Origin: Chiloscyllium plagiosum
Lineage: Eukaryota
Reading direction: 5' to 3'
NCBI RefSeq assembly: GCF_004010195.1
Contig: NC_057735.1
Coordinates: forward strand, 39,979,600 to 40,043,599
DNA: 64,000 nucleotides
Shown: positions 93 through 58,745 of the stretch, one piece after another
Layout of the letters: the number at the start of each line of letters is the position of its first letter
Numbering within the stretch: position 1 is the stretch's first letter
The notes under the pieces: generated by a model
The model's database searches: none
Seen by the model: the letters and a program-made list of their open reading frames with translations, nothing else
Told to the model about the DNA's origin: nothing
Made by a program: the position numbers and the translations under genes

Positions 93-830
93 GGATCAGT
101 GGTGCTGGAAGAGAACAGCAATTCGGGCAGCATCCGAGGACAGGCAAAATCGACGTTTCGGGCAAAAGCCCTTCATCAGGAATAAAGGCAGAGAGCCTGA
201 AGCGTGGAGAGATAAGCTCGAGGAGGGTGGGGGTGGGGAGAGAGTAGCATAGAGTACAATGGGTGGGTGGGACACCCGCACCAATCCACCAAATCGCCCC
301 GTGGCTCAACATTTCAACTCCCCCTCTCACTCTGCCGAGGATATGGAGGTGCTGGGCCTCCTCCACCGCCGCTCCTTCACCACCAGACGCCTGGAGGAAG
401 AGCGCCTCATCTTCCGCCTCGGAACACTTCAACCCCAGGGCATCAATGTGGATTTTAACAGTTTCCTCATTTCCCCTTCCCCCACCTCATCCTAGCTTCT
501 AACCTCCAGAAACTCGGTCCCCTGACCTGTCCGGACTTGTCCGATCTGCCCAGCTCCTTTTCCACCTATCCACTCCACCCTCTCCTCCCTGACCTATCAC
601 CTTCATCTCCTTCCCCACTGACCTATTGTACTCTATGCCACTCTCTCCCCACCCCCACCCTCCTCTAGCTTATCTCTCCACGCTTCAGGCTCTCTGCCTT
701 TATTCCTGATGAAGGGCTTTTGCCCGAAACGTCGATTTTGCCTGTCCTCGGATGCTGCCTGAATTGCTGTGCTCTTCCAGCACCACTGATCCAGAATCTG
801 GTTTCCAGCATCTGCAGTCATTGTTTTTAA
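93..830 (+). mobile_element. Penelope-like element 3' end: GIY-YIG endonuclease C-terminus plus pLTR, with an inverted partial pLTR at the 5' end
   Basis: ORF 259-495 PVAQHFNSPSHS...RRLEEERLIFRLGTLQPQGINVDF resembles the PLE endonuclease C-terminus; 93-264 is the reverse complement of about 621-792. Confidence 0.85.
706..735 (+). ncRNA. Minimal hammerhead-ribozyme variant in PLE pLTR (family A)
   Basis: CTGATGA-A-GGGC-TTTT-GCCC-GAAA-CGTCG: catalytic core boxes, 4-bp stem II and an ACGT palindrome in place of stem III; identical inverted copy at 151-180. Confidence 0.7.
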
Positions 831-843
831 CTCACCATACCCC

Positions 844-1678
844 AGTTACGGCACGGGGATTGAACCTCTCTGTTAATTAAAACCGAACACCCAGAAAAGC
901 TCGCCTTGCCTTGTAGTCTGTCAAAATGTGAGTGTCAGAGAGCTCCTAACTTCCACTATTTAAAGAAAAATAGTAATCTATTTTCCTAACTCTAATAGTG
1001 AAAATTAAACAAAAACTATTCACAAATCCGAGCCCCCCCCCATCTTAAGTACTTACTATCTGACCCCAACTCTATAAAAAAAATTGTTGTTCTAATAGTA
1101 CACTTATTAACTGTTACATTAACTTAATCTCAGTACCACACAGTCTCTATCTTCTCCAATGTCTACAACCCTTCTGGCTGCTGATCTCCCTGGGCTGTCT
1201 TTCTTTTTACTGCAAGTATGTTTCACATGAAAAGATATCTTCGATACATTTTCTAATTCCTTTGAGAAAAAGGTGTTAGATGGGCAGATAGCTCTCCGGC
1301 TCTATGGCAGTTGCTCACTCTAATTTTCAAAATGTCCATGTGTTTCATACCACCCCCACCTCACCCCAACACCACACCGAGACACATTAAGTTCATATAA
1401 GTTGATTGGTTTCTGGGTGTCAAAATAATAAATTCAAACTCGATTGGGTTTTAGTATTCTGGGCAAATTTTAAACTGGTTAAATTTGAATGGTTGTCAAA
1501 ACAGCAATCAAAACTCAGGTATCCATTTAACTGCCATTTACTACATATACCTATTTTGGAACAGCCTGTCTCCCAGCCCTTCCATTTGGGTAACTGAGCC
1601 AGCACTTTAAGTTTACTTCAAAATTCAGAAAACACTTTCTGTTTTAAAGTGAACATACATGCTTTTGACTTTGTAACA
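844..1678 (-). mobile_element. Solo LTR related to the Gypsy LTR at 58746-59460
   Basis: Starts (a)gttacggcacgggg...ttaattaaaacc..cacccagaaaag, similar to tgttacgatatgggg...ttaatttaaaacc..cacagaaaag; shared internal blocks (1405-1490 vs 59232-59320); ends taaca; no clean TSD. Confidence 0.7.
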
Positions 1679-1849
1679 GCCCCTAAGTAGTTGCTACTCA
1701 CTAAACTCCCTGGGGTAGACAGAATCCCTGGTACCTGCAGCATATTTGAAAAACCATATTTGGCCACCCAGATAAACAACTGGCATCTCGAAGCTGCCCT
1801 GCTGGGTGCCAGGCTAATTCGGAAAGATGATGGACATAGACATTGGTGT

Positions 1850-2065
1850 TTGAATTTTCCAATAGGGACCTGGAGGTCCTATTAGACAGGGATATATTGT
1901 GAAGGGCTGCCATTGTCTTCCCAGAGTATTGGCAGACACAGCCATGGCACAAGATCCTACCAGCCTGGGATGAGCTCATCACGAGGGTCAGTGCCATCAT
2001 CACGGACTGGAGAGACACTCGGCAACAAGGGAAGAAAGTAAGTGACCTTCTCTGCACTGCCAGTG
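1850..2065 (+). mobile_element. Harbinger-type Myb/SANT DNA-binding domain relic
   Basis: From 1867: DLEVLLDRDIL*RAAIVFP...ILPAWDELITRVSA...RDTRQQGKKVSDLL, trihelix Myb/SANT pattern with an in-frame stop. Confidence 0.6.
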
Positions 2066-2074
2066 TAAATGCCA

Positions 2075-2195
2075 AGAAGGGTCACAGGACCTGAAATGTT
2101 AATTCTGCTGTCTCTCCACAGATGCTGCCGACTTGCTGAGTTTCTCCAGCACTTTTATTTCAGACATCCAGCATCTGCAGTTCTTTGTTTTATTT
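2075..2195 (+). mobile_element. Short PLE-derived repeat (family C) with decayed hammerhead motif
   Basis: aagaagggtcacaggacctgaaatgttaattctg...ccacagatgctgcc..cttgctgagtttctccagca; related copies at 37085 (+) and 8880, 41630, 57765 (-). Confidence 0.6.
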
Positions 2196-5840: not shown

Positions 5841-5874
5841 CACTCCCCACTCCCCTTCACACCTCCCTACAACA

Positions 5875-8750: not shown

Positions 8751-9350
8751 CTAATATAAACTTCAAATCAGGCTCATACACACTTGACCTCTGACTTCAG
8801 TCTTTTAACCTTTGACTCTTTTCAATCTACACATTTCATTTCAAATGTCGTTTAATTTGAGTTATTTGAAATGTGGGGAGAGAAACAGAGTTAATATTTT
8901 GAGTCCAATTTGACTGCTCTTCAGAAATTCCTCCCACAATTTCTGATTTTATTTCAAATCTCCAGCACCCAACATGCTTTGCTTTTATTTGAAATGTAAT
9001 TATTTTAGCACAAAGTTATTTACTTTGCCTGGTTCAAATTATTCAATAATTTACACTTTCTAAGCACAATAAAACAGCTTTGATCAGTAAACCAACAATT
9101 CAAATTGCTCATGATAGGACCTAATTAGGCGTTTCCTCTAAGGGATGGAGTCTGTTGGTTCACTGCCAAAGTGATGAAGATAAAAATTATCTATTTTTCC
9201 ATCTAAATAGACATCTCAATTGGCTGTACAGATGTTCCAATTTGTACAGTTATCATCTGTGACATACTGTATAGAAATGAATTTGGATAGCGATAGGGAT
9301 ACAATATAGGATGATTTGCAACAGCTGCCTCTTATATATCCACCCAAATT

Positions 9351-9618: not shown

Positions 9619-9739
9619 TCAATAAAACTTGTGTTTCAAGTATGTTTACAATTGTCAGTTATCGCAACTTGTATGGCTGTTCTCTCTCTCCTTGTCTCTC
9701 TAGATAGATTATCCAAAACTACACTTAGCATATTGACTC

Positions 9740-9990
9740 TTGTTCACCCCCTCTCCGGCCTATCACCCTCACCCTCACCTCCTTCCACCTATCATATTCC
9801 CTGCGCCCCTCCCCCAAATTCCCCCCCACCTTTTATCTCAGCTCGCTTGGCACACCAGCATCATTTCTGAAGAAGGGCTAATGCCCGAAACGTCGATTCT
9901 CCTGCTCCTCGGATGCTGCCTGGCCTGCTGCGCTTCCAGCACCACACTTTTCAACTCTGGTCTCCAGTATCTGCAGTCCTCACTTTCCTC
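9740..9990 (+). mobile_element. PLE pLTR fragment (family A) with hammerhead motif at 9867-9895
   Basis: ctgaagaagggctaatgcccgaaacgtcg followed by the conserved ...ctgcagtcctcactttc terminus. Confidence 0.8.
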
Positions 9991-17163: not shown

Positions 17164-20100
17164 TGTGAGATTATGTCTCCCTGTCTGTATGTCAGTATAA
17201 CTTGAAGAGACATGCTCATCATATCATCATTGTATCATGATGCACAACTTGAGGGTAAAAATATCTTATACTCTACCTTACTTTAAAGCATGACACTTCT
17301 GTTGAAACAAGTTCTTCTGTTGCAAATCAATTAGCTTAACAATAGCCCAGATACTAAGATGGCTGAGGGCTGTTACATTTGTACATATTGTTTGTTTGTT
17401 CCTTTAGTAATATCCTTGTCCAGTTTCTTATATTATGTGAAATAAGATAAGCATTGACACAAGAGGTAAAACACTTTTTGGAGGCAAACTCACACGATAT
17501 TAGCAGTGGTGATCATCTAGAAAAGGTTCCAATATCTTGATGGCAGATATTTGGGAAAATAACTGAAGACCAACTAGGCCACAGCTTTGGACAACAGTCA
17601 ATGTAGATAAAGGGAAACTCTTCATCATAAGCAGAATCAGTTTCTCTAAGTGCAATCAGTTGTACAAATCTATAGGTAGATTATTAACCAAGAAAATAGA
17701 GCTAATTTGTTTTTGATTAGAATACATATTCTTGAATAAATGCATTTCTAAAAATCCCATAATTAAAAGAAATTTTAAACATAAAAAAGTTGCAATGCAG
17801 AGCCAATGCAAAGGCTGGAAGAATGCTCGAGCTCTATGGTCTCTACATATGTAACTGTTTCTCATACTGACTGTGACAAAGTCTGTCTTCTTAAAGAAGG
17901 AATAGTTTTTATTCTACACTGATATATAGTCAGGGACACATGGCTTCAGATATACAGTCAAACATTTTTAAAATGAAATAATGGCAGCAACCTCATTATG
18001 GACTGGGCATCCAGTGACACACTTAGTGAATTATAATTGTTCAGACGAGAGATGCAGTTTGTATCACAGCTCAGGCACACGATGATCTTGAGAAAAGAAC
18101 TTTACAAAATTTGCTTGTCACAGACAAGGAGGAGTTTTAGAGAGTTAACGCATCAGATCAGAAAGATCCAGAGGTTCTCAAAGACCAACTCAAGTTAATA
18201 ATTAAATTTAGGATTAATACAAAATCACTCATGTCGTAGAGATAGCAAACCCAAGAATGTATGGACCAGCTTGTCAGAAGATGCTAGAGAAAATCACACC
18301 ACTGTGATTTTTCCAAGCAGGAACTGTCAGAGAAGCTGATTGAGTCAGTCATCATTTCTACATATTTTCTGGAGAAGAAAATGACTATTTCATGGATGCA
18401 TCAATGCAGGATGGACGCAGGTATGAAGCAATAGTGGCTGCCAACAGCAGTTATATGGTTTAGGTGCAGCGAAGACTGGTGTTCCTGTCCGCAAAATGCA
18501 CCAAACCAACAAGGTCTGTGGCTTCTTACACCGACCCAAATGCTTTCCAGATGTTCTTGGAAACCTTAAAACATCGGGCACTGAAGGACATTGGGCATGT
18601 GCAGAAAGTTTGGTTCCAAAGGCCAAGCTAGATCCCAGAACAAACACAGGTCATAGAGTCACAGAGTCCTACAGCAGAGAGAGCGAAAGGCTCTTAAGAA
18701 GGTGCACAAACACAGATGCGTCAATGACGGCCAGAACCAAGCAACTGAAAGATAAATGTTAGAAGATAACCAAGCTTTCCACAATGCTATCTTCACACAC
18801 CATGTCAGTGATACAAGAGGATCAGGACTTTTTAAAGTCATTGCTATAATGTGTCCTGAAAACGCAGGACAAGCACACACTAAAAGCTAAAATCAATATG
18901 AGAACTAGTGCTGACATGTTACCACTGAAGATCAAGAAAAATATGTATACCAGTAGGTAACACGCCATGAAACAGCCCATCAGAGACCATTACGCAGTGT
19001 GCTGTATAACAGATTATCAATTCCATGTATTAACAGAATCACACTGCAGTGCCAATACACAAACTCACCTTGGTTTCCTGAAATATTTGACTTGGTCAAT
19101 ATCAATGGTCCAGCAGTGCCAGGACTCGCAGGATACACAGGTCTCAGTAAAGTCAGAATTCATGAGAATCAAACCATACTCACTGTGGTAGAATAGCCCA
19201 AATATGATGTAATCGAATCAGTCAAGAGTCTGCAGGGATAAGATTTCAAAGTGAGATATCAACTGAGATGGTTGAGTATGACGCGCTGAGTGGATTACCT
19301 GACTCTAAGACCAAGATATTCCTCTTGGTCTACATTGAAACAGTAGGTTGGGAAATTGCAGACATTCTCAAGGTTAATCTGTTGCACTTTGACCAGAGCC
19401 AGTGTGAACAGCTGCAATCAGCAACTGCTGAAGATGGACAACCACAAGAGTTGTAGAAGATTATGACAGTGTTAAAGGATTTGGAGAAAATGAGGACTGC
19501 AGATGCTGGAGATCAGAGTCAAAATGTGTGGGGCTGGAAAAGCACAGCCAGTCAGGCAGCATCTGAGGAGCGGGAGAGTCAACATTTCGAGCATCAGCTC
19601 TTCATCAGGATTACCTGAGAAACTTTGTCCATTCTGGCCATACACAGATGATCCTGAAAATTCATACCATCACTGCAGACTGTATGGCATGTACAATCAA
19701 GTCAGTGATCATTACGTGTTGAGCATCTAAGTTAGATTTTCAGGGTTGTATTGCTGTATTTTCCGACAACACCTAAAGAGAGGATTATCATTCCCATTAT
19801 AATTTACACGCAGAAGACAAGCTTGAATGACATAGCCCAGCAGCCAATTCTCTAATCATTCTGAGATACAGGACATTCTTCTTCAAAGACAGAGGAGAAT
19901 AAAAGAGGTATATGATGAATGAGTAGATAAAGAACTACCAAAAGTGTACATTGAGCAGAGAGTGTGAGTTTTAAATTTAAATCCAAATACTTGGATAGAA
20001 CAAAGGCTTCTAAAATATGCAACCATCCAGATCATCCAGTCATTGCTGATGATGGTGTGACATTATGCAGCCAGTTCAGACCACACATGCATGAGGACAA

Positions 20101-20764: not shown

Positions 20765-21944
20765 CTGTTTCTCTAACTTTATCTAGACCCTTTCACTGAA
20801 AAATGAGAAGGAATGTTGTCTATGATCACCTGGATTGTGGAAATCCTGCAAGAAAAGTTATTTTTTTAACTCCTGGTGCAACTTGCTTTCCTGGCAAGTT
20901 ATGGAGTTACTTTTGCTGATTTGTTTATATTTGATTAAAAGAGGCCCATCAAAAGGAGAAGCCTTGGCTCGTTCTACCTTCAAGCTCCAACCCCATTTCA
21001 GAAACTGATACTGTCTCTGTTAATGGATGGAGCAGAATTGAATTACATCCATGGATTGAGGAGCTATCAGGAAATATGGACTCATAAGTTGTAGAAAAAA
21101 TGTTTACATTTGTTTAACTCTCTTCCTATTACTTGTCTGGCGGTGTTTTTATCTAGCAAGTATACAAATATATAAATGTTCTGGTTTAATTAAATTAATT
21201 TGGTGTTGGAGTTGTTCACATGTCTGCCGCTGGTGTTGTTAAGCCTGCCCTCCACAATGCTGCTTATTGTAGATAACTCCACAATGGTGACTGCTTCAGG
21301 TGAATGGAGTTGTTCTCTTGAGTTTTGTGGTCAGTTAATCTGGCCCATATACGACTTGCGAATAGCTGCTGCTCTGTTTTCAACACTCTTTAAAATTTAG
21401 TTTGAGGGTGAATTTATACTGATCCGGTGTTTAATTTATTTTTAAGGGGTAACCTATTCCTTGTAGTTATTTGTAGAAATGAACTTTGTAATTGGGATGT
21501 GCATTGAACACAGTGCAATGATGAAATCAGGGTGCTCTGGTAATACTGGGCAAGCCTAGAGTCAAGGCTGTAAATGAGGACTGGGACGGCAATGAATTAT
21601 TTCTAAGACCCAAATTCATAGATTTATCTCAAAAGTGTCAGCCACTGGGACCTGATTGCCATGCTGCTCTTTTTCTGATGCTGTAGATGTACAATTCAAC
21701 TTTTATTTGGGTGGTCTATTGAACTCAGGCCTCCAAACATAGCAGAAACGCAACAACAATGTAATTGTATAACAGTGTCATGATTATGTTTTTCTCCAAT
21801 TATCCCCCCTTCACTCCTGTGGGTACTGAATCCCACTGAGGTGGCTGCCCCTTGGAACTGACTATCTTTTGTGTGAGTCAGGATAGGGGTCCCAGTGCTA
21901 TTCAGAGGTAAGGATGAGCAAGGGGAGAGTGGGTACCACGGTAA

Positions 21945-22030
21945 AGATTAAAAATCACACAACACCAGCTTATAGGCCAACAGGTTTATTTGGAAGCACT
22001 AGCTTTCAGGACACTACTCCTTCATCGGGT
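21945..22030 (-). mobile_element. PLE pLTR fragment (family B)
   Basis: aaaatcacacaacacc..ttataggccaacaggtttatttggaagcactagctttc...ctccttcatc, same family as 34236-34423. Confidence 0.7.
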
Positions 22031-22934
22031 GGGGTTGTTATTTGAATCAAATTGTAAAGAATTGAGCTTAATTGGCTAAGTGGCTGACACAAGACTTGGA
22101 ATATCAGCTAGTTGTCAATCCAACCAAGGTAGTGTTGAGATCGTCTTCCTTTCCTTGCGCTGAGAAAATACCACTGACCAGGAAAACAGCTCAGGACAAA
22201 GCATCAGCAGACAATGAGCCAAGGACCTACTTTTCTACAGAGCATTCACACCATGCTGTGCAGCACAGATAAATGGCCCTACAGATCTATGTGACTTTTG
22301 AAACATTCTCCTTTTAACTTTATCTCACACTATCAACACATTCGGCTCTCCCTCATGTACTAATCCAGCTTCCCCTTTAATACATCTATATTTGCTTCAT
22401 TCACAATAATAATTTAAAAATTCTCATCACCCTTTGGGAGTAAAGACATTTTTCTTGAATTCCTTTTTGGAATTGTTCGTGACTATCTTATGTTTATGGC
22501 CATTTCTTGTGGACCTCCCCACCAGTGGAAAGATGTTTATCAGTGCCATTGAATTTCTTCATAATTTTAAGAACATCTATGAAAACACCTCTTGGTCTTT
22601 TCTTCCTTTATAGTTTGATCCTTTCATTTTTGTAAATACTTTTCACACTTTCTCAGTGCTGCTCTATTCTATTGTCTGATCTCCACGCTGACACATTTTC
22701 CAGATGGAATGAGTTAGATTAGAAGCAACATATCTGGTTCGTTCTCCTTCAAAGCTCAGGAGGAGCTTAAGACCATTGTGAGAATCTGTACAGTCACTTT
22801 TGGACCTTATATACCGTGTAGGTATTCAACCTGAAATCTTGGGGATGGTTTTTATTTGGGGATATTGGCTTCTTCAGGCCTTGCAGAAGTGGCCAAGGCA
22901 GGGCTCCTGTATTAAAACATTAGTTTATGTTTAG

Positions 22935-31020: not shown

Positions 31021-31639
31021 GTTAACTCTACGGCTTTCAAACTTCTGTGTCTTGGAATAATTTAGTGGTTATACCTAAAGTTCACGGTCTCCTTTTTAGA
31101 ACATAGGAAAACCACAGCAACAGGAATAAGCCTCACGTCTGCTGTTCAATTCGATCATGGCTGTTGGTAACTTCACTATCTAACTACCCTTGCTCCTTAT
31201 CTTTGATAATCTTACTTAACAAGTTTTGAACTTTACAACTGACCCTAGTCTTTGCAATATTGGGTTTCGGATTTCTGCTACCCATTGTGTGAAGTGTTTC
31301 TGGAAATCACTAAAATAAAAACAAAATACTGTAGATCCTGGAGATTGGAATAAAAACAAATTGTTGGAAACAAAATGTAATGATATGGAGTCATTTCAAA
31401 CTTGAAGCATTATTTTATTTTTTTCTCTCCACAGATGCTGCCAGACTTGCTGAGTTTCTCCAACACTTTCTGCTTTCTTCCAAAGAATTGCCCCTGAATG
31501 ACTTAGTTTATTATTAAGGCTTGATTCTCCATAATGTTTGAAATGTTCTTTTTCATTCATGGTATTGATTGCCTTCCTTAAATGCCCTGGAGAAGATGGT
31601 GGTGACTTGCTTGCTTGAATGACTGTAGTTTTGGATTAT

Positions 31640-31770
31640 TCCTGGTGGAGGGCTTATGCCCGAAACATCGATTCTCCTGCTCCTCGAATGCTGTCTGACT
31701 TGCTGTGCTTTTCCAGCCCTACACTTTTTGACTCTGATCTTTAGCATGTGCAATCCTCATTTTCTCTCTG
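31640..31770 (+). mobile_element. PLE pLTR fragment (family A), hammerhead core mutated
   Basis: cctggtggagggcttatgcccgaaacatcgattctcctgctcctcg. Confidence 0.75.
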
Positions 31771-34196: not shown

Positions 34197-34423
34197 ATGA
34201 TGTGGAGGAGCCAGTGTTGGATGGGGTGGACAAAGTTAAAGATCACACAGCAGAAGGTTATTGTCCAACAGGTTTATTTGGTTGCCCTAGCTTTCAGAGC
34301 ACTGCTCCTTCATCAGATAGCTGTGATGAAGGTAACAGCTATCTGATGAAGGAGCAGCGCTATGAAAGCTAGTGCTTCTGAATAAACCTGTTGAACTACA
34401 ACCTGGTGCTATGTGATCTTTAA
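34197..34423. mobile_element. Head-to-head PLE pLTR hairpin (family B) with two hammerhead motifs
   Basis: 89-bp inverted arms 34236-34324 and 34335-34423; ctgatgaaggagcagcgctatgaaagctag at 34343-34372 and its inverse at 34287-34316. Confidence 0.85.
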
Positions 34424-35240: not shown

Positions 35241-36734
35241 TTGCTCTTCTCTGACTCTGACTGTCCTGATTGACTGACTAACTACATCCAAGCCCCTGGA
35301 TTGTATGGGAGGCTGCCCTTGACTAACTGTACCTCCTCACTGAAGGCTATTTCCCTCGATGTGACTGACAACCATGGCAAGCCTCCTGGCTTTGTGTCTG
35401 TGTTAAACAACAAAGCAATATGACAGTGCTATGAGCCTGGTATCTCTGGCTGAGGGGACAAAGAGGAAAAAGCGATGCAAGGCAGGAGAGCTGTGAGTGT
35501 GCAGGTATGCACAAAGAGGGTGAGCCTGTAAAGAGCAAGCAAACTGGCCGTGGTGCAGCTCTCTCCGTCCACGAGCACGCAGTGTCCTTACTGTAGCACC
35601 GCAATGACAGTTGCTGATGCAGTCTGAGGTGCAGCATTGAATTGGAGTCCTGGAAGTGGCTTGGAGATATGCCACAAGAGTTCCCAGAGACTGGCACATG
35701 TCAGATGCAAATATAAGTGGACATGGGGTTGCTGTGCCTGATGCCCATTGGGTGCATCCAGAGAAGATGGTGTCTAACATTTGAGACTGTTTGGAACAAA
35801 CAGAAAGCTTGTGCCCAGCTCCAACTTGCCTAGCAAGAATTCTCAATGCCTAGTTTGATCATGGCAGGTGATACTCTAGAAAGCTACATACTACTGAGGT
35901 GAGATCTGAAGTTAATTAGTTCATTAACAACCAATAATACTCCTTTCATAAGCAACTTACTGCTCCAGACGAGACTCTCATCTTTACACCTAGAACTTAG
36001 TTAAGGAGCAGCGCTCAGAAAGCTTGTAATTTCAAATAAACCTGTTGGACTATAACCTGGTGTTGTGTGATTTTTTAACTTTGCCCACCCCAGTCCAACA
36101 CAGGCACCTCCACATCTTAGTCAATAGGTGCAACAAACTGTTCCCAAAATCGAAGTAGGCTTTGCTGAACTTTTCATCTGATTCAGCCACCATAGCCCAG
36201 GCTGTTCAGGTTCTTCAATAAGATTCCATCATTAAAGAAATTGAGCCCTTTTAAAAAATATGTTATGTCATTGTTTATAATAAAATATGATGGTTGCTGC
36301 TGTATTGTGGAAATCCTGATTAACTGGTGAGTTAAGAAGGCTGAGCAACTGGTGACAAAGGAGTTGATTTATAATGACCTTTCTAACACACATGTGAACA
36401 GTCTGCTTAAAATAAAATAAAATAATTTGAAATTAATTAAAATAAACTAAATATATGCCAGTGGGAATTTAGATTTAAAGTTCAGACTCACAATAAAGAT
36501 AGTGGACAGCTTAACACTTTCTAATCAACTCATTCAGAGATGTTATTACTCACCATTGGAATCTAGGCCTCCTGGGTCAGAGGTGGAGACACTACCTCTT
36601 CACCACAAGAGCCTCAGGTTTCAGTCTTTTAACGCTAAGACTCAACACTGGCCCCAGCTCTTGGCCTCACTGTGAAATGTGAATCCCTTGAATTAAGTAT
36701 TGCTGCAATGGAAAAACCGACTGCACTCCTACCT

Positions 36735-37055: not shown

Positions 37056-37389
37056 CCTATTGTGTAGCCATGTGTTTCTCCAGTTCTGAAAAGGGTCACT
37101 GGACTCAAAATCGTAATTCTGTTTTCTCTCCCAGACCTGCTGAGTTGCTCCAACAATTTCTGTTTTTGTTTGTTTCTCCTATCTTTGTGAGTCTGTCTTG
37201 TGCTGATGATCCTTTTCCCCATTTGGTACGGCAAAGAAACAAAAGTGGACTGCTGACCTCTAATTATTAAAATTATCTTCATGAAGAAAGCAGATGATGT
37301 GGAGGTTAAACTGAAGGGGTGAAGGTAGTCATTGGTAGAATAGTAATGGAGTTTAGTAGTAAACAAACAATCTTACTAAACTTTGAGTC

Positions 37390-38590
37390 ACTTGGTCGAG
37401 ATAAAATGAACCTGTTGCTAAAATAAGCAAAAGTATAAATAGCAGAGGCACTGGTCCCAAGTTTTCAATTCTTATTGGATTCGAGAATAGTGTGGAGGAG
37501 TGGAGGATTATTAATGTTATAGCACTATTCAAGAAGGTGGAGGCCGCTACACTGAGAAACCATAGACTGGGCAGTCTAACATTATGGAGAGGTTATTGGA
37601 AACCATTAATATGTTCAGGGAAGCTCATGGTATAAGGAGAAAATGAGGAAATGAATGCAGTCTTAAGTTAGCTACAGGAAGTACAGAATGGTGGTGGATG
37701 AATGTTTTTCACACTCACGGTGCTCCTCAAGTGTCAGCTTTGTCTCTATTACGTGTCCCAGATTTGACAAACTAGGTTCACGTCTAGGTAGCAGCATTGT
37801 GAGGTTTGTAAATAGCACAAACCCTGGAAAAATATTGGATAGTGATGAAAATAATTTGTGGACTTCGTGATGACAAATGTATGATGGTGAAATGGGCAGA
37901 AGCAAAGTGTGCGGAGATCAATGCAGAGAGGTGTGAAATGACACACTTTGCAAGATCTACTTTTGAAAACAGTGTGCTGCTTATTACATGATTTGGAAAG
38001 TTTAAATGAGCAGAGAGACCTTCATGTTTATAAACAGAAGTCATTAAAGGTGGCAAGGCAAATTGATTAAACCAAAGCAGTTGAGTTAGAACATAAATGC
38101 AAAGAATCCATGCTCAAAACTTATAAAACACTGGAATATTCTGGACAATTTGGGGGAGTACACTTCAGGAAATATGTAAAGGTCTAAGAAAGGATGTGTA
38201 GGAAATTCACCAAGAAGTTATGAGGGAGAGGAACTTCAATCATGACATGAGGTTGGAAATTGTTCCCTTTTGAAATAAAGGCTAGAGTGGACATGATCGA
38301 GTTTATTAAAAATAGATAGAGAAAAATCACTAGTCGTCATATTTTCAAAATCAGTGACAAAAAACAATTTAGAGGAGAGATGAGAGAAATTGTTTGGAAT
38401 TTGGAAGACTTTACCCAAAGATATGATGGAAGCTGATGTCATAAATAATTATATAAAAGTATTTAAACAATTTCTTACAAATGAGGAATTTACAGGGTTA
38501 AAAAAAGGAGGGATGAGGTGGGATGAAGCAATTTTGTTTTATCGATGAATCAACAGAGGAACAATGGGCTTGCTGGTTTCTTTCTGAGTT
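37390..38590 (+). mobile_element. Highly decayed CR1 ORF2 fragment
   Basis: Degenerate EEWRIINVIALFKK and NHRLGSLT motifs, plus later CR1 3' motifs. Confidence 0.55.
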
Positions 38591-38770
38591 GTGAAGGTGC
38601 CAGTGTTGGACTGTTAAAAATCACACAACACCAGGTTATAGTTCAACATGTTTATCTGGAAGCACTAGCTGCTCTTTCATCAGGAGATTCTGTAATCTGT
38701 GTCAATATGTGTGATCTTCTTGGAGATCCTCTCCACTTTGAGCCGGCAGTTAGTGGTGTCAATGGTAGCC

Positions 38771-38966
38771 ATGATGTGGAGAAGACGGTGTTGAACCGGG
38801 GTGTACAAAATTAAAAGTCACACAACACCAGATTATAGTCCAACAGTTTGTTTGGAAGAGCGCTGCTCCTTCATCACAGCTACCTGATGAAGGAGCAACA
38901 CTCCAAAAGCTAGTGCTCCCAAATAAACCTTTTGGATTATAATTTGGAGTTGTGTGATTTTGAACT
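38771..38966. mobile_element. Head-to-head PLE pLTR hairpin (family B)
   Basis: Inverted arms about 38812-38876 and 38885-38963 around ccttcatcacagctacctgatgaagg. Confidence 0.8.
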
Positions 38967-39904
38967 TTTTTCTGTGTGATATAGTTTATGATTCTGTATT
39001 TCTCATGCTTCATTATTGATGGGATTATATGAGGCTACTAGTCTGAAAAGATCAAATGAAGCGTGCCATTAAAGGGTATGTGCCTCCGAATTGGTCTTGT
39101 GTCTGAGAGAATAGCCAAGATGGATCCTTCCTTCAACACTGCCCTTCCTTCCTGCGTGAGGATTGGTGTGTCGACAGTGAAATGCTAATCCTCTGGTGTC
39201 TCTTCCTGCCAGCACAGCTGAGATAAGGAAAGTTAAAAATAAATGTGAAATTCCATTGAGATATAGCTGAAAAGCCAGAGCAATGTGTCCCAGGCTTCAC
39301 TGGAGAGCATGATATGTGATAGAGTAGAAATCTAAAACCCCACGTTGAAACTCTGGTGTAAGGTTCAGATGAAGAATTGAATTGGTGGGCCCATCTTAAA
39401 CACCTTGCTAATATGGTGACCTTACCATATCACCTGTACTGTGACATTAGAAAAATGTCTCCAACCACAGAGTCCTGTTTTATTGCTCATTATATCTATG
39501 AGAGAATGACCTTTAATTTTAAACTGATTTAATTACAATACAACACAATGTGATGACTTTGATCGCATTTTGTGAGACTATTTAATTGCATATAATAAAA
39601 AGCCTTATTTGATGGAGATCTTTTTGTCAATTCTGTAAAAAAAAGTCTGAAGTGTTTCACACATGATGAATTGCTTTGTACTACTCTGCTGTACAGAGGG
39701 ATTTCTTTTTTGACAACTATCCTATACATAGCTGTATATTATTAACAGTGACTAGATAATGGATAATTAATCAGTTTCAGAGTGATTCTGTTTGAGAGGT
39801 AATGGTTGTTCAGTTTTTCTTTGAAAAATGCCTTGAGGAAGCCAACAGTTGCAATGAACTAAATTACTCTTGCTTCTGAGTCAGAGGCTTTAGGTTTAAA
39901 AGAC

Positions 39905-40562: not shown

Positions 40563-40739
40563 AAAGTCAGAAATCACCTGATGCCAGGTTATAATCCAAC
40601 AGGTTTATTTGAAATCACCAACTTTTGCATCAGGTGAAGTCACTGACTTGTACTTCCAAATAAACCTGTTGGATTATAACTTGGTGTCATGTGACTTCTG
40701 ACTTTGTCTACCCCAGTTCAACACCGGCACCTCCACATC
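40563..40739. mobile_element. PLE pLTR hairpin (family B) with TSD
   Basis: Inverted arms about 40563-40615 and 40650-40705; tcttaattt repeated on both flanks. Confidence 0.75.
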
Positions 40740-40879: not shown

Positions 40880-41468
40880 ACACATACACATGCAATCTCT
40901 CCCTCTCTCTCTCTCCAACACAGACACTTCCACACATTCCCTCCTTCTCCCTCACACACACATATAAGTCAATGTGATGAGATTGCGTTTGCAGGCTTGT
41001 ATTTGCAGATATGTTCTATTTTGTTCAAAAAGCACATAATCAGGAGGCAGTCAGTTAATGTGGCATTTTATAAGTTTTTACTTTGGAAACAGAACCAGTC
41101 TGATTCACGGTTGGGATACAGACAGACTCCAACCTCACACTTTTAATACATTGTCTGAGCTGAGGTGTCTTTTTTTTATATACTGATAAAACCTTAAGTT
41201 ATCTTGGAGCCATGACTTGAAAGAAATTATGGGATTTACATATTAATCAATCGAAACCTCCATTCCCATTCTTAGTGACTAAAGACTTGACAGCAATCTA
41301 GGTTTGTTCAATACAATGCATCAGTTGTATGACACTTTGATCTTTTACTATAAATTCTATGTTCTATGATCCTGCCACACTAGCTACCTGATGATGGAGC
41401 AGCACTCTGAAAGCTTGTACTTTCAAATAAACCTGTTGGACTATAACCTGTGTTGTGTGAATTTTAAC
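40880..41468 (+). mobile_element. Longer PLE 3' region (family B) with hammerhead motif at 41388-41417
   Basis: (CA)/(CT) tract, then sequence ending ctgatgatggagcagcactctgaaagcttg...aataaacctgttggactataacctg. Confidence 0.65.
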
Positions 41469-41924
41469 ATTAAAATTGATAGCATCTGTATATCATCTCC
41501 ATGTCCACTTACAGGTTTGTTTTGCTAGTTACAACAAATTTTTTTATGGTTGATTCCTACATGAATATTTTAATATTTATTGTGTTCTAACTGATTAATT
41601 ATGCTAATTTCCAAATCAAACCTAAATTGCTAACAAAAACAGAAATTGCTGGAAAAGCTCTGCAGGTCTAGCAGCTCTGTGGAGAGAAGTCAGAGTTAAC
41701 ATTTTAGGATCTAGTGATCCTTCCTCAGAATGTCTAACCAGATATCACTACATGTACTCCTTCATTTCTGGCCTCTTGCTTTTCTCCATTTGTGGTAGTA
41801 GTGCCTTATATCTGCCTAAATTCTAAGCTGTTCAATTCTCTTCCTAAATATCATCTCTGCCTCTTTCTTCTCATTTTAAAATGCACCTTAAAACTCCTTC
41901 TGACCAAGCTGTTGTCTATCTCAT

Positions 41925-44008: not shown

Positions 44009-44598
44009 CTAAGTCCACCGTTATGTCACCTCTTAACCTTTTTCTCTCTAACAAAACCAGTTTCTCTCTAACAAAACCAGCCTCTAGTACCTCAGACTTT
44101 CTTCATAAGACCTTCCCTCCATACCAGGCAACATCCTAGTAAATCTCCTCTGCACCCTTTCCAAAACTTCCAGATCCTTCCTATAATGCAGCGGTAAGAA
44201 CTGTATGCAATACTTCAACTGTGGCCGCACGAGAGTGTTGTACAGCTGCAACATGATGTCATGACTCTGAAACTCAATCCCTCTACCAATAAAAGCTAAT
44301 ACACTGTATGCCTTCTTAACAACCCTATCAACCTGGGTGACAACTTTCAGGGATCTATGCACATGGACACCAAGATCTCTCTGCTCATCCACACTACCAA
44401 GAATCTTACCATTAACCCAGGATTCTGCATTCCTGTTACTCCTTCCAAAGTGAATCGCCTCACACTTTTCCACATTAAACTCCATTTGCCACCTCTCGGC
44501 CCAGCTCTGCAGCTTACCTATGTCCCTCTGTAACCTGCAACATCCTTTGTCACTATCCACAACTCCACCAACTTTAGTGTTGTCCGTAAATTTACCAA

Positions 44599-44777
44599 AG
44601 CTGAAAATGTGTTGCTTGAAAAGTGCAGCAGGTCAGACAGCATCCAAGGAGCAGGAGAATCGACGTTTCGGGCATGAGCCCTTCTCCTGCTCCTTGGATG
44701 CTGCTTGACCTGCTGCGCTTTTCCAGCAACACATTTTCAGCTCTGATCTCCAGCATCTGCAGTCCTCACTTTCTCCT
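44599..44777 (+). mobile_element. 179-bp PLE-derived hairpin insertion (family A) with 14-bp TSD, nested in CR1
   Basis: cgtaaatttaccaa at 44585-98 and 44778-91; inverted arms about 44599-44659 and 44682-44742. Confidence 0.88.
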
Positions 44778-46200
44778 CGTAAATTTACCAACCCATCCTT
44801 CTATGCCTTCATCCAGGTCATTTATAAAAATGACAAACTGCAGTGGCCCCAAAATAGACCCTTGCAGTACACCACTAGTAACTGAACTCTAGGATGAACA
44901 TTTCCCATCAACCACCACCCTCTGTCTTCTTTCAGCTAACCAAATTCTGATCCAAACTAATAAATCACCCTCAATCCCATGCCTCTGTATTTTTTGCAAT
45001 AGCCTAACTTGGGGAACCTTATCAAATACTTTATTGAAATGCATATATATTACATCAACTGCTTTACTGATATTAAATCCACCTATTTGATCATCTTCTC
45101 AAAGAATGCAATAAGGTTTGTGAGACATGACCTACACAAAACCATGTTGACTATCCCTAATTAAATTATTCCTTCCTAGATGATTATAAATTCTACCTCT
45201 TATAGTCCTTTTCAAGATTTTACCCACCAACCGAAGTAAAGCTCACTAGTCTATAATTCCCAGGGTTGTCCCTACTCCCTTTCTTGTACAAGGGGACAAC
45301 ATTTACTATCCTCCAGTCATCAGGCACTATTCCTGTAGACAATGATGACATAAAGATCAAAGCCAAAGGCTCTGTAATCTCCTTCCTAGCTTCCCAGAGA
45401 ATGCCAGGATAAATCCCATCTGGCCCAGGGGACTTATCTATTTTCACACTTTTCAGAATTGCTAACACCTCCTCCTTATGAACCTCAATCCCATCTAGTC
45501 TAATAGTTTATATCTCAGTATTCTCCTCAACAACATTGTCTTTTTCCTGTGTAAATACTGATGAAAAATATTCATTTAGCACCTTTCCTATGTCTTTGGA
45601 CTCCACGCACAACTTCCCACTACTGTCCTTGACTGGCCCTAATCTTACTGTAGTCATTCTTTTATTCCTGACATATTTATAGAAAGCTTTAGGGTTTTCC
45701 TTGATCTTACTTGCCAACGACTTCTCATTTCCCCTCTGGGCTTTTCTTAGCTCTCTCTTTAAGTCCTTCCTGGCTAACTTTTATCTCTAAAGCCTTCACA
45801 CCTCATCCTTACATAAGCCTTCTTCTTCCTCTTGACAAGAGATTAAACTTCTTTATTAAACTACAGTTCCCTTGCTCGACAACTTCCTCCCTGCCTGACA
45901 GGTACATACTTATCAAGGACCCGCAGTAGCTGTTCCTTGAATAAGCTGCACATTTCGATTGTGCTCATTCCCTGCAGCTTCCTTCCCCATCCTATGCTTC
46001 CCAAACCATACCTAATCGCATCCTAATTGCCTTTCCCCCAGCTATAATTCTTGCCCTGCGGTATATACCTGTCCCTTTCCATTGCTAAAGTAAACATAAT
46101 TGAATTGTGGTCACGATCACCAAGGTGCTCACCTACCTCCAAATCTAACACCTGGCCTGGTTCATTATCCAGTACCAAATCCAAAGTGGCCTTGCCACTT

Positions 46201-48817: not shown

Positions 48818-51139
48818 CATTTATCTTCCTCCTTAATTGTTTAATGTTTCTGCAAGCCAATTTTCAGCATTGAATTTTCCCTACATGATAAACATCAGTT
48901 ACCTTGTTGCCAATTCATATAACTAGCCTTTATCTCTTTGTAGTCTATTTGTGTCCTCCTCAAATTACTACCTGGCATTACATCATCAGGAACTCTTGGT
49001 CTCTCCATCCAAATCATTAATATAGATTGTAAGCTCAGATCCTTGAGGTAATTATTGACAACGTCTGACAATACCTTGATTTATCAGTTGATTAAAACCA
49101 CCTTAATATCAGACCCCAGTCTTTTCTAGACACTTGGTGTCATGCTAACTGATCTGGGGTTCCCTGTTTCTATTCCTCCTCATTTCTTGAATCACGGTGT
49201 TAAAGTTGCTGGCTAACGAAGGCTTTTGCCTGAAACGTCGATTTTACTGCTCCTCGGATGCTGCCTGAGCTGCTGTGCTTTTCCAGCACCACTAATCCAG
49301 AATAAAATTGCTAGCTACCAATCACAGAGGCCTTTCCACCATCCAGGGAATTTTGGAAAATCAAAACTCGTGCTTTACCACCTTTCTTGTTTCCTTTCTT
49401 GTGCAAACTTTGGACAGTAAAACAACAGGGCAAAATCAGTAAACTGTTTATCTGACTATGAGTATTTGCAATATGGCTCGTGGACAACTAGTACAAAGGA
49501 ACACATCTTCCATCATTTTTACTGTGAGATCAGCAGTGTTGTACGTATATGTGATTTTTCCTCTCAATTACTCTAATGTGGCCTTGTTTGTGGTTTGTCA
49601 AAATAAATAGTTAATTAATAGGCTATGATAGCAGCAAGCACAGGTCTTGTGATACAATGGTAGCATTCCTAGCTCTGAACCAGAAGCTCTGGGTTCAAGT
49701 CCCAGTCCAGGACTTGTTGGCCAAGAGGATTTGTTCATGACATGGCCAAGCAAATTGATTATTAGGCCTGTAAGTCCTCTCAGTATGGCAGACGATAACA
49801 GTGGGGGTTCTTTCTGATTAGCTAAACAGGCAACAGTAAACCACTGCAGTACTTTGTCCATTAGCGTGGAAACAAATCATATCCTTCCAACTTGCATTGA
49901 ACCTCACTGGAGCACTGCAGCGGGCCCAAGACCTTCATACCCGTTATGTCAACTTACTTCCTACTTCCACTAACTACACCATTCTCCTTCACCTACTATA
50001 CCAATTCATTGAGTATCTAGAATGAGTGAACCGCCAACAACTATCAAGAAACTCAACATCAATCAGGCCAAAGCAACCTGCTTGACGGGTACCCTATCCA
50101 GCATCTTCAACATTCATTTCCTTTACATCACTATGTGGTGGAGCAATGTTTACAAAACACACAGTGACAACTCATTAAGGTTCCTTATACTGTACCTTCA
50201 AACCCTTGATCTCTACCAGCTAGAAGGACAAGGACAGTAGATGCATGGGATCAGGGGCTACTGAAATCCGAAGCTCAGGGATGGTTACTGTGCTTGGGAC
50301 TGGGTTGTGGGGTGTTCAGGTCAGAGGCTGGGGATATGAACCAGGAACAGCACCTGGTCTCATGATGTCTGTCCCTAACACACTGTGAGTGTTCCTATAA
50401 CCCAAGTTCTGCAGCAGTTTCAAATTGGCAGCCCATTACAAAATTCCCAGAAGCAATTAGGGAAGGACAAGAAATGGTGGCCTAGCCAGTGATGCTCTCA
50501 TCCCACGAATATTTTTTTAAAATATCCAAAAGTACTTATGCATGTAGGAGAAAATATCATTCTGCTAGTTAAATTGTTAAATTGCAGACAACCCTACATT
50601 TGAAAAGCACTCTAATGCATCAATATACAGTTGACTTTTCTGGACACTTATTGACAGTCCTTGACATTTTCCACAGAACGGGATAGGACTTATCCCATGA
50701 CCATTTCTGCAGAGGCCTGTTACTTTTCCAAAGGGGTACCTTGTCTATCCAAAAGAAACTAATCTACTGGTCTAATCACCACAATCACATTCCAAACATT
50801 AGGGAATGCATGATCTGATTTCATTGAAAGCAGGTGGCCATGTCAGTGTGAACAACTGGAAATAAACAAGAACCCTTCAATCCTCAGAGATGCTCTCTCT
50901 ATGTCCTGGTGAAAATGGGGCCTAGTGTACATTGACATTTTTTTTTGTTAATGTTTAACCTGCTACACTGTGTTAAAAAATAACAGTCATACAATTATTG
51001 ATTTTTCTGACTAGACTTGAGAATGATTTGAATTGTACAAAGCCAGTGTGGGATGTTAGTGCTTTCAGGTTTATTCCTGTTTGGAGTGAGAGCAGCTTCT
51101 GGTTATGAATTAAAGGCATTACTTCGGAATACAATGTTA

Positions 51140-54205: not shown

Positions 54206-55354
54206 ATATTAGACTGTTAAATGAAGTTGAATATCATGAAAATAAAAGCAAATTATTGAGCTGGTTAGGATGTGTGGCTGAGCATCAGGACACAGTTTGA
54301 ATAATAGGTAGATACTCTACTTGGCAGAATATAACTAATGTTATTCAGAAGGATCTGTGTGTGGAACCTCAATTATTCATCATATTTTTAACAACTTAGA
54401 TGATGATAGAGAAAGCCACGCATTCAAGTTTATCAAATCGTATGAAGATCATAAGCAATGTTGATGAAAGAAAGAGATATTGACAAATTAAGTGAATTGC
54501 AAATCTCTAGTGAATGAATATCACTATAGAGAAAGACAAGGTCATCCACTATGGAACTTACATGGATAAATTACTGTTCAAATGGTGAAAATCTTGAAAC
54601 AATGGAGATCCTACAAGAATTAGTTGCCCATGAGCACAGATTGTGATGGACAGATATAGGAAATAGTCATAGGCTAATGGAGCACTAGCCATTATGTCTG
54701 ACCTGCTGCGCTTTTCCAGCAACACATTTTTAAGCACCGATCTCCAGTATCTGCAGTCCTCACTTTCTCCCATTCCAGGTATCAGTTTAGTAAACCTGCT
54801 CTCAATTGTCTCCAATGTAGTCATAAATAATAACAGGGAACATATTTCTATAGTTTTTCAGATGATAGAAGTTAATTTATTTGGTACAGGCTACAATCAA
54901 GCTCTCAGCACGAAGTAGGATTGTCACTTTTGTTATTTTGGTCATACTGGGAAACACCCAAGTGTAGTTTTAGAGTTTAACTCTCCTATCCCACAGAGCC
55001 CTTCCCTTTGTTGCATTGTTACATGTCATGTGAGCCTCTCACATATCTTTGTATAATTTCAGCTGTCTCTTTAGATATTTATAGTTCAGCCTGTTTAGGG
55101 GAGGGTACACCAAAGACAGGGTAATCCAGTCAGGACTCCAATAAGGATGGAAACTTTTCCAACTATGGGATAGCGATGAGTTGGCTGCAGCTGGCAGTAA
55201 TAATCTACTCTATATATGGGTTTCTGTGCAAATGTGTAACAACTTGAAGCTTGTGTGCTTATGATAGGTGCAGCATGAAATAAACAGGAGTTGCAAAGCA
55301 GTGCAGCAACCATGTAACCCTGCAAGCCGTCCGAGCAGATGCATCCTTTGTTGC

Positions 55355-55785
55355 AGTCTTAGCTCAACAGTGGCACTCTTTCTTAATGAATTAGGAGGCT
55401 GAATGTTCAAACTACCCTCGAAAGTCAATCTCTGCTGCTCACTCAATACAGTACTCAGAGAATTGCTGTATGGTCAAAAGCTGACTTTCAGGTGTGATGT
55501 TGAATCAAAGGCCTGCCCTTCTCTCTGATGAATGCAAAATAACTCATCGTATTTTTCACAGAATAGTAGGATGGTTCACTTGGTGTCCCAGCCAACATCT
55601 ATTCCTCAACCAAACGTGACTAAAAGAAATCTCCATGCTGCTGTTCATGCTATTCATTTCACTGTGTGCAAATTGTCTGTTGCATTACTCTATATTACAA
55701 TGGTAAACACACTTTGAAAGTTCCTTACTGGTTGTAAAGTATTTTGTAACATTCAGAAAGCAATTTTAGGAATGCAAGTTGCTTT
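55355..55785 (+). mobile_element. Deu-domain SINE (SacSINE1/AmnSINE1-related)
   Basis: tRNA-like head, ggtgtcccagccaacatctattcctcaacc and ctgtgtgcaaattgtctg..tattacaa..ggttgtaaagtattttg blocks. Confidence 0.6.
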
Positions 55786-56985
55786 TAAAAATTCTAATAT
55801 CCTAAATGTAACTGCAGTGAAAAAAAAGCTCCATAAATAATATCTGTTGGGATTGCAACTAAAGTGATTTGTGTTCAGTTCAAATTATGTGTATTTAAAT
55901 TATTTTTAAATAAAATAGATGGGCAAAGGAATACCGCATTGACCATCATCATATGTGAAATATGCCTTAAATAGATTGCTACTTATTATAGTTATTTATT
56001 CGTGTAATGTGAACATTACTGGTCAGTTTGCTGGGCTTGTTCAGGGAGCAGATAAGAGACAACCAAACTGTGAGTTTGGAGCCACATATAAGTCATGTAA
56101 AACTGCAGATTTTCTTTGCTAAAGGACATTTGTGAATAAGATGGAGCTTTATAACATTATGGTGGTTTTTTATTCCAGATTTATTAAATGAAATTAATCT
56201 AAATGCCCTCAACTGCCAAGATAGAATTCAAATATATCTTCAGATCACCAGTCCAAGTCTTTTGAATTATTTTGCTACTATAATCAATGAATAAAGTGTT
56301 CATTTAAGGAAAATACATTTGCTTCAAAATAAAAGCCCAATAATTAGCTTGCAGAAGTTTCCAATGCTCTGCATTCACTGCTATTTAAACAGTAATTATA
56401 TACTTTTCTTTATTATAGAATATGGGTGCTGTATGCCAATCACTTCAGTAGCCCAACGGGATGCTGTGGGACATCTAGGAAGAAGCAGAACTCATTTATT
56501 GTATTTCATTTGGACTGAACTGAAAGGATTTTCTTTAACATCTCTTACAATATAACCTAAGATTGTTGTCTCCAATTTCAGTTCATTGCAAGTAGTTCCT
56601 GTACCTTAGGACAGAAGGTTCGGGTATGCTGATGCACTATTAATTCAATATAGGTCTGCCTCACAAACTGTAAAGTTTATGTTCATGTAGGTTTAGAATT
56701 TGGTAGTAAAATATTATTTCACATAGTGAACATTAATCATGTAGCAGACATTACAGCTGCCAATATAGGATTATATTAGATATCCAAAATATGTTAGTTG
56801 TCATTGACACTGTGTTTTACAATAAAATATTGACTGCCTACCTTTGTGCTTCTCAATTCTTTCATAATATGGTGAAGTTATCCATCTTGTAGAAATCAGC
56901 TGACATTACCTTTAAATGATTCTTCTTCAGGAATAAAACAATATGCATTTTATGGAATAATATACTTGAAGTTGAGAACAGACCT

Positions 56986-57096
56986 CTAAGAGATTCTTGC
57001 AAGGATTTCATTTCCATCCCAAATCTGACTTAAAGTCATGAATTTCAAACTTTTCGCAAAGAGTTCAATCAGTTCATTGTTATATTTTGCTGATCG
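56986..57096 (-). CDS. Candidate terminal coding exon of an unidentified convergent gene (RSAKYNNELIELFAKSLKFMTLSQIWDGNEILARIS*)
   Basis: Acceptor tttatcttatttag on -, phase-0 open frame of 36 aa to TAG, followed by mostly non-repetitive AT-rich sequence with AATAAA signals; no homology recognised. Confidence 0.25.
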   Translation of the reverse strand, partial: RSAKYNNELIELFAKSLKFMTLSQIWDGNEILARIS

Positions 57097-58745
57097 CTAA
57101 ATAAGATAAAGTATATGTAAAAAGGAGGACAAACTGCTATTCTTACAATTGAAAAATAAACAATCAAAATAGAATTCCTATCAATAAAGAACAATTACAG
57201 TCTTAAAAAGCACATAAGGCAGCAATAACTGTTCTTTAATAGACCAATACATTTATTACATCATATGTGGTTTAGTCATTCATTCTCGTTATGTTCTTAT
57301 AGGTGACATGGTCTTTTATTTAGAAGGGGCTATCTAACATTGCAATACACTGTTGCTGCGCCCAAGGTCTGAAGTTAATTGTGCTATCTGTGTTGATTTT
57401 ACCTGAGTTCTTCAGGGAAAGCAGCTGAGAAATTCTCATTGGTATCCACACTCTTGTGCTAGCAGGGATGGGTGTGAAATGGAGTCAAGTTATCAAAAGT
57501 TCATGCTCATTGCCTAGCCTTTAAATTATGGAATCATCTTCCTTCATTTCTCCATCTTTCTGCTTTACTTCAAGATGTTCTTTAAAAGCCACATTTTCAT
57601 CTGAGCGCTTGGTCATCTGTCCTAATATTGCCTTGCAAAGCTCACTATCAAATATTTCCATGAAGTGCCTTGGGGCTAATTTACTGTGTTAAATGTGCTT
57701 TTATTAATACAAGTTGTTATGCAATAAATCAGTGATGATTGAACTAAACTTAGCCTAATGACAAGAGCAAATTACTTCAGATGCTGGAAATCTGAACGAC
57801 AATAGAAAATCTATAGCAACAGTAGAGGGAGAATAAGTTAACATTTCAGGGCCAATGTCCTTTTAATTTGCAGTGTTTTGTTTTGAACCAATTAATGGCG
57901 TCGGATTGAAATAGCTTGTTACTTTTAGGACGATATTTTTCAATGGACAATGCAACAGGGTTATCAAGCTGTTTTATGTCACTAGTTAAAAAACACAATC
58001 AGAAATAGAATGCCCAGCAAAAGTGTTAATGCAAAGCATCAGATGGCTAAATACAATGGACTTATGTTAAGGGTGACTGAAACAGGATTTTATTGAGATA
58101 TTCAAGATCTTTAATTTCAATAAAACTGGGAAATTTATCATGATTAGATACAGCTCAGGAAAACATTAGGTAGAATGATCTAGCTTACTGTGTAATTTCA
58201 TACATACAATGTATGATTGGAATGAATTGCCTTAAGAAATTATCAAAGCTATTCAATGTGGAATCATAAAACAGGGACAGGCCTTTGGCATGAAATCAAT
58301 TTAGAAAGACAGACATGAACTTTGTATCCTGTGTTGGGTCAGCCAGACAGGAACCAAAAAGCATTCCACTCTGTCAACTTATTGTGCCAAATAATTGTAA
58401 CACATAATGGTTACACTTTGCTTGTGGGTCATAGCTTCCATATTACAGCCTACACAGTTAATCAGAACAAAGAAAAATGTTGAACACTCATACATTTAGT
58501 GTAATTAAGTTTAATAAAATGGTTAAAAGTACTTAACACTTAAAAATAAGGGAATGGGTACTGCTTGATCCAAAGACAGTGAATTAACTCTAAGTATGTT
58601 TGCTTCAAACAGGAGAATATATTTATAAGTTTATAGTTTCTCTGTGACACATTACGGCTCCGTTAAAGTGGTGTAATAAGTATGACTGCTCTGGTCTTAA
58701 TTGGGATATAAATGGGATATCATAAAACGTTACATTAATCAGTAG

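Follow-up and report, generated by a model that had tools for sequence, protein, structure and literature searches.

Insertions of endonuclease-positive Penelope-like elements (PLEs) consist of a pseudo-long terminal repeat (pLTR), an inverted, 5'-truncated copy and a tail of 30-40 bp, according to the passages on insertion layout in two papers (PMC8557442; PMC3846280 for Pen2/Pen2a of Adineta vaga), the second of which also places a TATA box plus an initiator (Inr) in a pLTR. For Poseidon PAc of Anolis carolinensis, the sections of Frangieh et al. 2024 (PMC11167929) on insertion describe internal priming at two sites in the pLTR and the start of the open reading frame (ORF), with both strands extended and ribozyme cleavage not needed. 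Metazoan non-LTR retrozymes, as characterized in two reports (PMC7229834; bioRxiv 10.64898/2026.07.22.740005), form head-to-tail tandem monomers with canonical, efficient hammerheads and circular RNAs. Here we analysed a stretch of 64,000 nucleotides of the shark Chiloscyllium plagiosum (RefSeq assembly GCF_004010195.1, contig NC_057735.1, positions 39,979,600 to 40,043,599; hereafter the window), in which an earlier note had seen three families (A, B and C) of short, hammerhead-bearing PLE termini and had suggested ribozyme-defined RNA ends and mobilization in trans by PLE RT, as in retrozyme-like elements.

We show that these repeats are the pLTR ends of three families of protein-coding PLEs and constitute no separate retrozyme or short interspersed nuclear element (SINE) family. 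Neither the elements nor their hammerheads are of a new kind; the families join the endonuclease-positive PLEs with minimal hammerheads as new members and are not a new system. The 5' ends of the short copies pile up just before the hammerhead core. With a probability of roughly two in three, these copies are dead-end stubs left by a reverse transcriptase (RT) that was primed near the ORF start and ran off a transcription start predicted 4-9 nt before the core.

Results

The repeats are the ends of coding elements

Copies were searched with family profiles and a fuzzy motif search, and element positions are counted from the C of CUGA as 0. Upstream of the pLTR all three families have a GIY-YIG frame, and downstream A and B continue into an ORF start; the repeats are therefore the pLTR ends of coding PLEs. 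Relatives nearly identical to the family A copy at 706 begin at staggered positions between -133 and -682 and enter a frame with a CX4CxxC linker and the motif YIGET. The Pfam GIY-YIG match of the A frame (E=4e-4) lies below the curated cut-off. The upstream frames of B and C are homologous to that of A (E=3e-8 for A and B, E=9e-18 for A and C), and their fragments have no Pfam match of their own. The linker is visible in both the A and the B proteins; we take it to be a mark of the Neptune clade, which would probably place these proteins in another clade than Poseidon. A broken RT-like stretch with YIDD was found at one locus (L009). The family B tail ends at the ATG of the ORF (in the window at 38773) and the family A ORF starts about 40 nt beyond the tail, whereas the PAc ORF, as described in the relevant section of PMC11167929, starts at stem II. 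For family C no downstream continuation into an ORF start was found.

To put numbers on these insertions we used 100 genomic tiles picked by position (967 kb readable, of a 3.56-Gb genome). They held 293 arms representing about 235 insertions, or some 240 per Mb, which extrapolates to about 0.86 million insertions genome-wide. Only 23 of the 293 arms reached the coding frame. The 3' ends were bimodal in A and B, at about +85 to +96 and at +120 to +124. A head-to-head partner accompanied 69 of 145 tailed arms, and in 60 of 70 pairs the tail was one-sided. Target duplications scoring at least 10, mostly of 11-17 bp, flanked 112 of 426 copies, whereas shuffled pairings gave 1.2. When the two arms of one insertion were compared with other insertions, they were closer to each other in A (0.083 vs 0.137) and barely so in B and C, a result that is not decisive.

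This layout is the known one of endonuclease-positive PLEs. With those elements, and with Pen2 as portrayed in the sections devoted to it, the shark families share a C-terminal GIY-YIG domain, heavy 5' truncation, a head-to-head arm, a one-sided tail, target duplications, a pLTR that overlaps or abuts the ORF start, and TATA- and Inr-like words within the pLTR. They differ in that most copies here are pLTR-only stubs with 5' ends in a 20-nt zone; the passages on the other elements contain no such zone.

A minimal hammerhead in three families

The three families have in common CUGANGA, an extra A, a stem II of 4-5 bp, GAAA, a CG or GC palindrome and U-H; the shared core and the ACGT or AGCT palindrome had been recognized correctly in the earlier note. 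Stem I has 3-4 bp and ends at -3/-4 in every family. Its first pair is C-G (A, B) or U-A (C), its second U-A or A-U and its third C-G, U-A, U-G or G-C, but U-U in A; the fifth is mostly unpaired. Stems I and II covary between families. Downstream of the core A and C are related (69% identity vs 49% shuffled). Family B resembles them in the hammerhead only (58-60% vs 44-45% shuffled, a weak excess), with flanks at or below background. The claim that the families differ downstream thus stands for B and fails for A against C.

With its conserved core, extra base before stem II, palindromic 15.2-16.2 positions and short covarying stem I, the motif fits the published minimal hammerhead (min-HHR) of PLEs and is a predicted ribozyme. 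In the portions of Cervera and de la Pena 2014 (PMC4209133) that define it, the metazoan min-HHR likewise has CUGANGA, an extra base before stem II, a G-C first pair, GAAA, palindromic 15.2/16.2 and a short stem I, and occurs mostly as single motifs from truncated PLEs with some opposite-strand pairs; its stem II has 7-8 bp, as opposed to 4-5 bp here. Monomer folding gave stem II without the full hammerhead fold, as expected for dimer-type motifs. An Rfam scan of the window returned no hammerhead family, only chance miRNA-type hairpins and one weak tRNA match.

Short copies have no lineage of their own

If the short copies were independent retrozyme- or SINE-like families, amplified from short masters by PLE RT acting in trans, they should be separable from the long ones. 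They were not: short and long copies intermix. In a nearest-neighbour label test, which omitted the young A copies picked for long upstream sequence, the observed values were 0.656 in A (0.623±0.045 for shuffled labels, with 0.24 of shuffles reaching the observed value), 0.566 in B (0.507±0.047; 0.10 of shuffles) and 0.776 in C (0.780±0.089; 0.65 of shuffles). Diagnostic columns between short and long copies were absent from A and B; C had three, with only 11 long copies. N runs aside, none of 167 short non-inverted copies shared a 5' flank with another locus. The core occurred in a single one of 109 Tandem Repeats Finder arrays (period 78, 1.9 copies), and the 11 same-strand neighbours less than 1.2 kb apart among 221 arms included no regular array. 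The stubs also lack the TATA-like word described below.

What speaks for independent families is the very high copy number with a common 5' zone, the small share of arms that reach the coding frame, and the derivation of animal retrozymes from pLTRs (bioRxiv 10.64898/2026.07.22.740005, in the part that treats their origin). With non-LTR retrozymes as described (PMC7229834 and the same preprint), the shark repeats share a type I hammerhead, a PLE connection, long target duplications and short copies without protein. They differ in being single or head-to-head, in having minimal hammerheads and in being continuous with coding PLEs.

One rare structure resembles a tandem or circular unit. At six of 30 family A loci found by their ORF start (one of them the query), the copy broke off at about +311, and upstream pLTR sequence followed there in head-to-tail orientation (loci around these joints: L328, L338, L342, L347, L349, L354 and L358-L364). 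The -77/+311 joint had 7 exact matches at 6 insertions, one of which carries it in both of its arms, vs 316 for the native continuation, and was absent from the window. It was seen with different subfamily variants and, at one locus, twice, the second copy being partial. Two sources of the joint are conceivable: a third priming site, or a tandem or circular unit of some 390 nt, possibly a nascent retrozyme-like unit. Separately, at L342 a family A composite is nested in a head-to-head pair of family B, which hints that one PLE may insert into the termini of another. We consider independent families improbable, and the retrozyme-like lineage proposed in the earlier note is not supported.

Copies end before the core, not at the cleavage site

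The same note had observed that many copies start just 5' of the core. Indeed, when 5' ends were counted on 278 tile arms (arms at tile edges or adjoining N were dropped), 120 of 190 arms at risk ended at -12 to +7, a rate of 0.0445/nt against 0.002-0.011/nt in other bins. This pile-up, about ten times the flanking rate, was present in all three families and among tailed arms alone (62 of 89). Its modes lay at -4 to -2 in A, -5 to -2 in C and -9 to -5 in B, and it persisted in a young subfamily with a median identity of 0.96.

These ends could have been set by hammerhead cleavage of the copied RNA, and a few window arms do start near the predicted cut (40647 at about +26, 44682 at about +30). 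However, the bin around the cut site, +24 to +33, showed no excess of ends: 10 of 237 arms at risk (0.0043/nt) and 2 of 114 tailed arms, counts that are affected by the under-detection of very short arms. The ends are therefore not ribozyme-made. A type I hammerhead cuts 3' of GAAA, at about +28, so copies that start 5' of CUGA came from uncut RNA. For the anole element, cleavage was dispensable and no reads ended at the cut site, in the experiments reported in the relevant part of PMC11167929. Ribozyme-defined ends, as suggested earlier, are thus highly improbable.

Least probable of all is that the pile-up is an alignment artefact of upstream divergence between subfamilies. Identity between A subfamilies does fall from 0.86 in the hammerhead to 0.61 upstream, and such divergence accounts in part for the loose RNA ends at -4. 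Nevertheless, the short ends adjoin target duplications or inverted arms, which argues against an artefact, and the pile-up held in the young subfamily with its own model and with junctions scored on all subfamily consensuses. We found no account of a -12 to +7 pile-up in the literature searched, outside of which lay subscription papers, supplements and the Repbase and Dfam entries; Repbase or Dfam may already hold these families.

A promoter-like geometry upstream of the core

The initiator consensus served for a word search of the pLTRs. An initiator-like A was found at -4 in A, at -4 in C and at -8/-9 in B, with a TATA-like word about 31 nt upstream. In family B, 30 of 40 long copies contain TATAAA, 27 of them at -38 to -40, and it is the sole TATAWA word in the 730-nt B0 upstream consensus; in family A, (C/T)TTATC lies at -33 to -38 in 43 of 52 long copies. 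A pile-up at an initiator-like A, some 31 nt below a TATA-like word, suggests run-off at a transcription start. Consistent with a cap-derived G, non-inverted copies that start exactly at the initiator-like A were preceded by G in 8 of 9 cases, a post hoc count, and in 2 of 2 in a held-out set of 40 loci, most of them uninformative.

We propose that the pLTR would set the RNA start through its TATA-like word and initiator-like A, and that the template RNA would remain uncut by its hammerhead. The endonuclease would nick both strands about 13 nt apart, each nick priming cDNA at one of two sites. Priming in the 5' pLTR would yield run-off products of 90-130 nt that are then linked through end repair, and longer, staggered truncations would come from priming in the 3' pLTR. 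Such run-off stubs, being without the TATA-like word, would rarely re-amplify. As in PAc, according to the description of its insertion in PMC11167929, two adjacent internal RT starts would bound the tail, both strands would be extended and the template would be uncut.

Several observations weigh against run-off at a transcription start. The family A word is no canonical TATA box, and the C word CATA(A/T)A occurs in only 3 of 9 copies. The 5' ends spread over about 20 nt. A pooled test for an extra G was null (15 of 53 vs 15.0 expected), and the G signal comes from 11 copies. The RNA data, one polyA single-cell run (about 2% read) plus contigs, another raw run having yielded no reads, showed reads on both strands and no place where many molecules begin or end, although such libraries would miss small circles; the loose ends at -4 were set aside as confounded by subfamily divergence. 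Copies picked by their ORF start were mostly cut inside the pLTR (21 of 30 in A, 11 of 19 readable in B). For B, where 20 of 41 matches were fetched, only 1 of 8 such copies reaching +7 stopped in the zone, vs 30 of 50 solo arms (Fisher p=0.02); the corresponding count in A was 5 of 9. Finally, a full-length element was never read in one piece, the apparent long frames being N-filled.

The passage of most B ORF-start copies through the zone indicates that longer RNAs exist, and it fits the chief rival, in which the same PLE stubs arise by pausing or release: RT would leave a longer RNA at the completed hammerhead fold or at a bound protein, or cDNA ends would join best there via short palindromes. 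Stem I ends at -3/-4 in all families, beside the modes of A and C, junction spacers are often short overlaps of palindromic sequence, and palindromes at inverted junctions have been described (PMC3846280, in its section on junctions). Yet a structural block would be expected on the 3' side, where RT enters. Moreover, the B mode at -9 to -5 tracks the initiator-like A and not stem I (-3), direct copies lacking a second arm also end in the zone, and the TATA-like spacing is left unexplained. We therefore rate a pause as rather unlikely and favour run-off at the transcription start.

A splice origin, through a shared first exon or a stop at a branch point, was rejected: junction flanks share no sequence, and the RNA data contained no splice joint. 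As a separate observation, the tail ends of A and C (for example 9975-9995) often resemble a 3' splice site, a pyrimidine tract followed by AG; the youngest A subfamily has not retained the AG.

Copies in the window and their surroundings

Of the 18 sites listed in the earlier note, 16 matched the motif of their own family on the stated strand in profile and motif searches; those at 8890 and 57835, both on the minus strand, were missed by the profiles and are by eye decayed pieces of family C. On the minus strand, the cores start some 28-33 nt further right than the coordinates quoted there. Seven arms had gone unlisted (31422, 38589-38684, 38772-38895, 40563-40627, 40647-40739, 44682-44765 and 54695). 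Many copies are indeed SINE-sized, as had been stated, but the description does not suit 272-829, 9715-9990 or 40880-41470 (Table 1). That the repeats are PLE termini with hammerheads was right, since the pLTRs run into PLE coding sequence and the predicted motif is of the minimal type. The strict core pattern (CUGANGA, 4-bp stem II, GAAA) occurred 6 times in the window vs 2 matches in 30 Markov controls, and the core was intact in only 6 of 15 window arms spanning it and in 51 of 190 in the unbiased tiles. In the family B composite at 38589-38968, some 85 nt belong to the ORF start, and two decayed cores lie on one strand at a distance of 185 nt.

Table 1. Arms, stubs and motifs of PLE families A, B and C in the window.
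Position	Strand	Feature	Basis
90..271	-	Family A inverted arm, tail-less, -92 to +89	96% inverted repeat of 614-795
272..829	+	Young PLE of family A, truncated at its 5' side: GIY-YIG frame end (274-495), 3' untranslated region, hammerhead, tail	Translation; some 30 nearly identical copies in the genome, their 5' ends staggered
669..675	+	Putative promoter word (C/T)TTATC, TATA-like, some 32 nt upstream of the initiator-like A (702)	
702..737	+	Type I hammerhead of minimal form, built of stem I, CUGAUGA-A, stem II and GAAA-CG-UC; cleavage predicted after 733	Sequence, covariation table
2072..2190	+	Family C stub, decayed core	Motif search
8870..8926	-	Decayed family C fragment, approximate ends	By eye; missed by profile
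9715..9990	+	Family A copy, second subfamily, reaches about -159; about 275 nt	
19484..19613	-	Family A stub from about -5	
21944..22032	-	Family B stub, -4 to +86, without tail	
31422..31479	+	Family C fragment without core, unlisted earlier	
31636..31768	+	Family A stub from about -6, with an imperfect 12-bp target duplication	
34198..34423		Two family B arms head to head, 34198-34331 (-) with tail and 34335-34423 (+) without; imperfect 11-bp target duplication	
35996..36116	+	Family B stub with tail	
37081..37171	+	Family C stub from about -5	
38589..38968		Composite of family B, with an arm at 38877-38968 (+); minus strand: pLTR through tail into ORF start (ATG 38773), then second pLTR stub 38684-38589	
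40563..40739		Family B head-to-head pair from about +20 and about +26; near-match 12-bp target duplication; unlisted earlier	
40880..41470	+	Long family B copy, about -504 to +83, about 590 nt; TATAAA 41349-41354, initiator-like A 41379, core 41388	
41623..41730	-	Family C stub from about -2	
44585..44791		Family A head-to-head pair in a long interspersed nuclear element (LINE) fragment; exact 14-bp target duplication at 44585 and 44778	
49213..49303	+	Family A stub without tail	
54695..54770	+	Family A fragment without core, unlisted earlier	
57770..57870	-	Decayed family C piece without CUGA, approximate ends	By eye; missed by profile

The window also contains a large exon of an APOBEC2-like deaminase (42346-42957, plus strand; Pfam APOBEC2 E=8e-61), so that many of the stubs may be intronic or gene-flanking. 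A LINE with a 573-aa open RT frame, presumably of CR1 type, occupies 2509-4230 on the plus strand (Pfam RVT_1 E=1e-30), and LINE fragments lie at 16405-16986, 24569-25009, 44084-44632 (the host of the PLE pair 44585-44791) and 53164-53862. Fragments of a second LINE type, which we take to be L2-like, were found at 5917-6838 (+) and 12399-12731 (-). A separate repeat of 300-320 bp, probably the shark HE1 SINE, is present in about nine copies (4549-4868, 10836-11132, 25237-25551, 36735-37062, 39908-40186, 41921-42230, 43689-44009, 46210-46516 and 48516-48818). The minus strand at 59635-63800 holds broken LTR-retrotransposon pol and gag-like fragments with RT_RNaseH matches.

Discussion

Beyond run-off itself, a bolder scheme is possible, though we hold it doubtful. 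The hammerhead would form the first 35 or so nt of a capped, TATA/Inr-driven RNA, and a dimer-dependent cut would remove the cap, acting as a copy-number-sensing off-switch instead of producing ends of the template. A 'strong-stop' cDNA, primed internally on the uncut leader, would have been integrated hundreds of thousands of times, and the -77/+311 joints would be retrozymes being born.

Cleavage by the PLE hammerhead is dispensable in vitro for the anole element, according to the part of PMC11167929 that reports those assays. In the shark, three families, one of them unrelated to the others outside the core, agree in how the TATA-like word, initiator-like A, hammerhead and breakpoints are ordered and spaced. 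This shared geometry provides a base-level prediction of the RNA start and thereby a direct test of whether the ribozyme trims a capped leader. Furthermore, the stubs constitute a very large natural record of where PLE insertions start and end.

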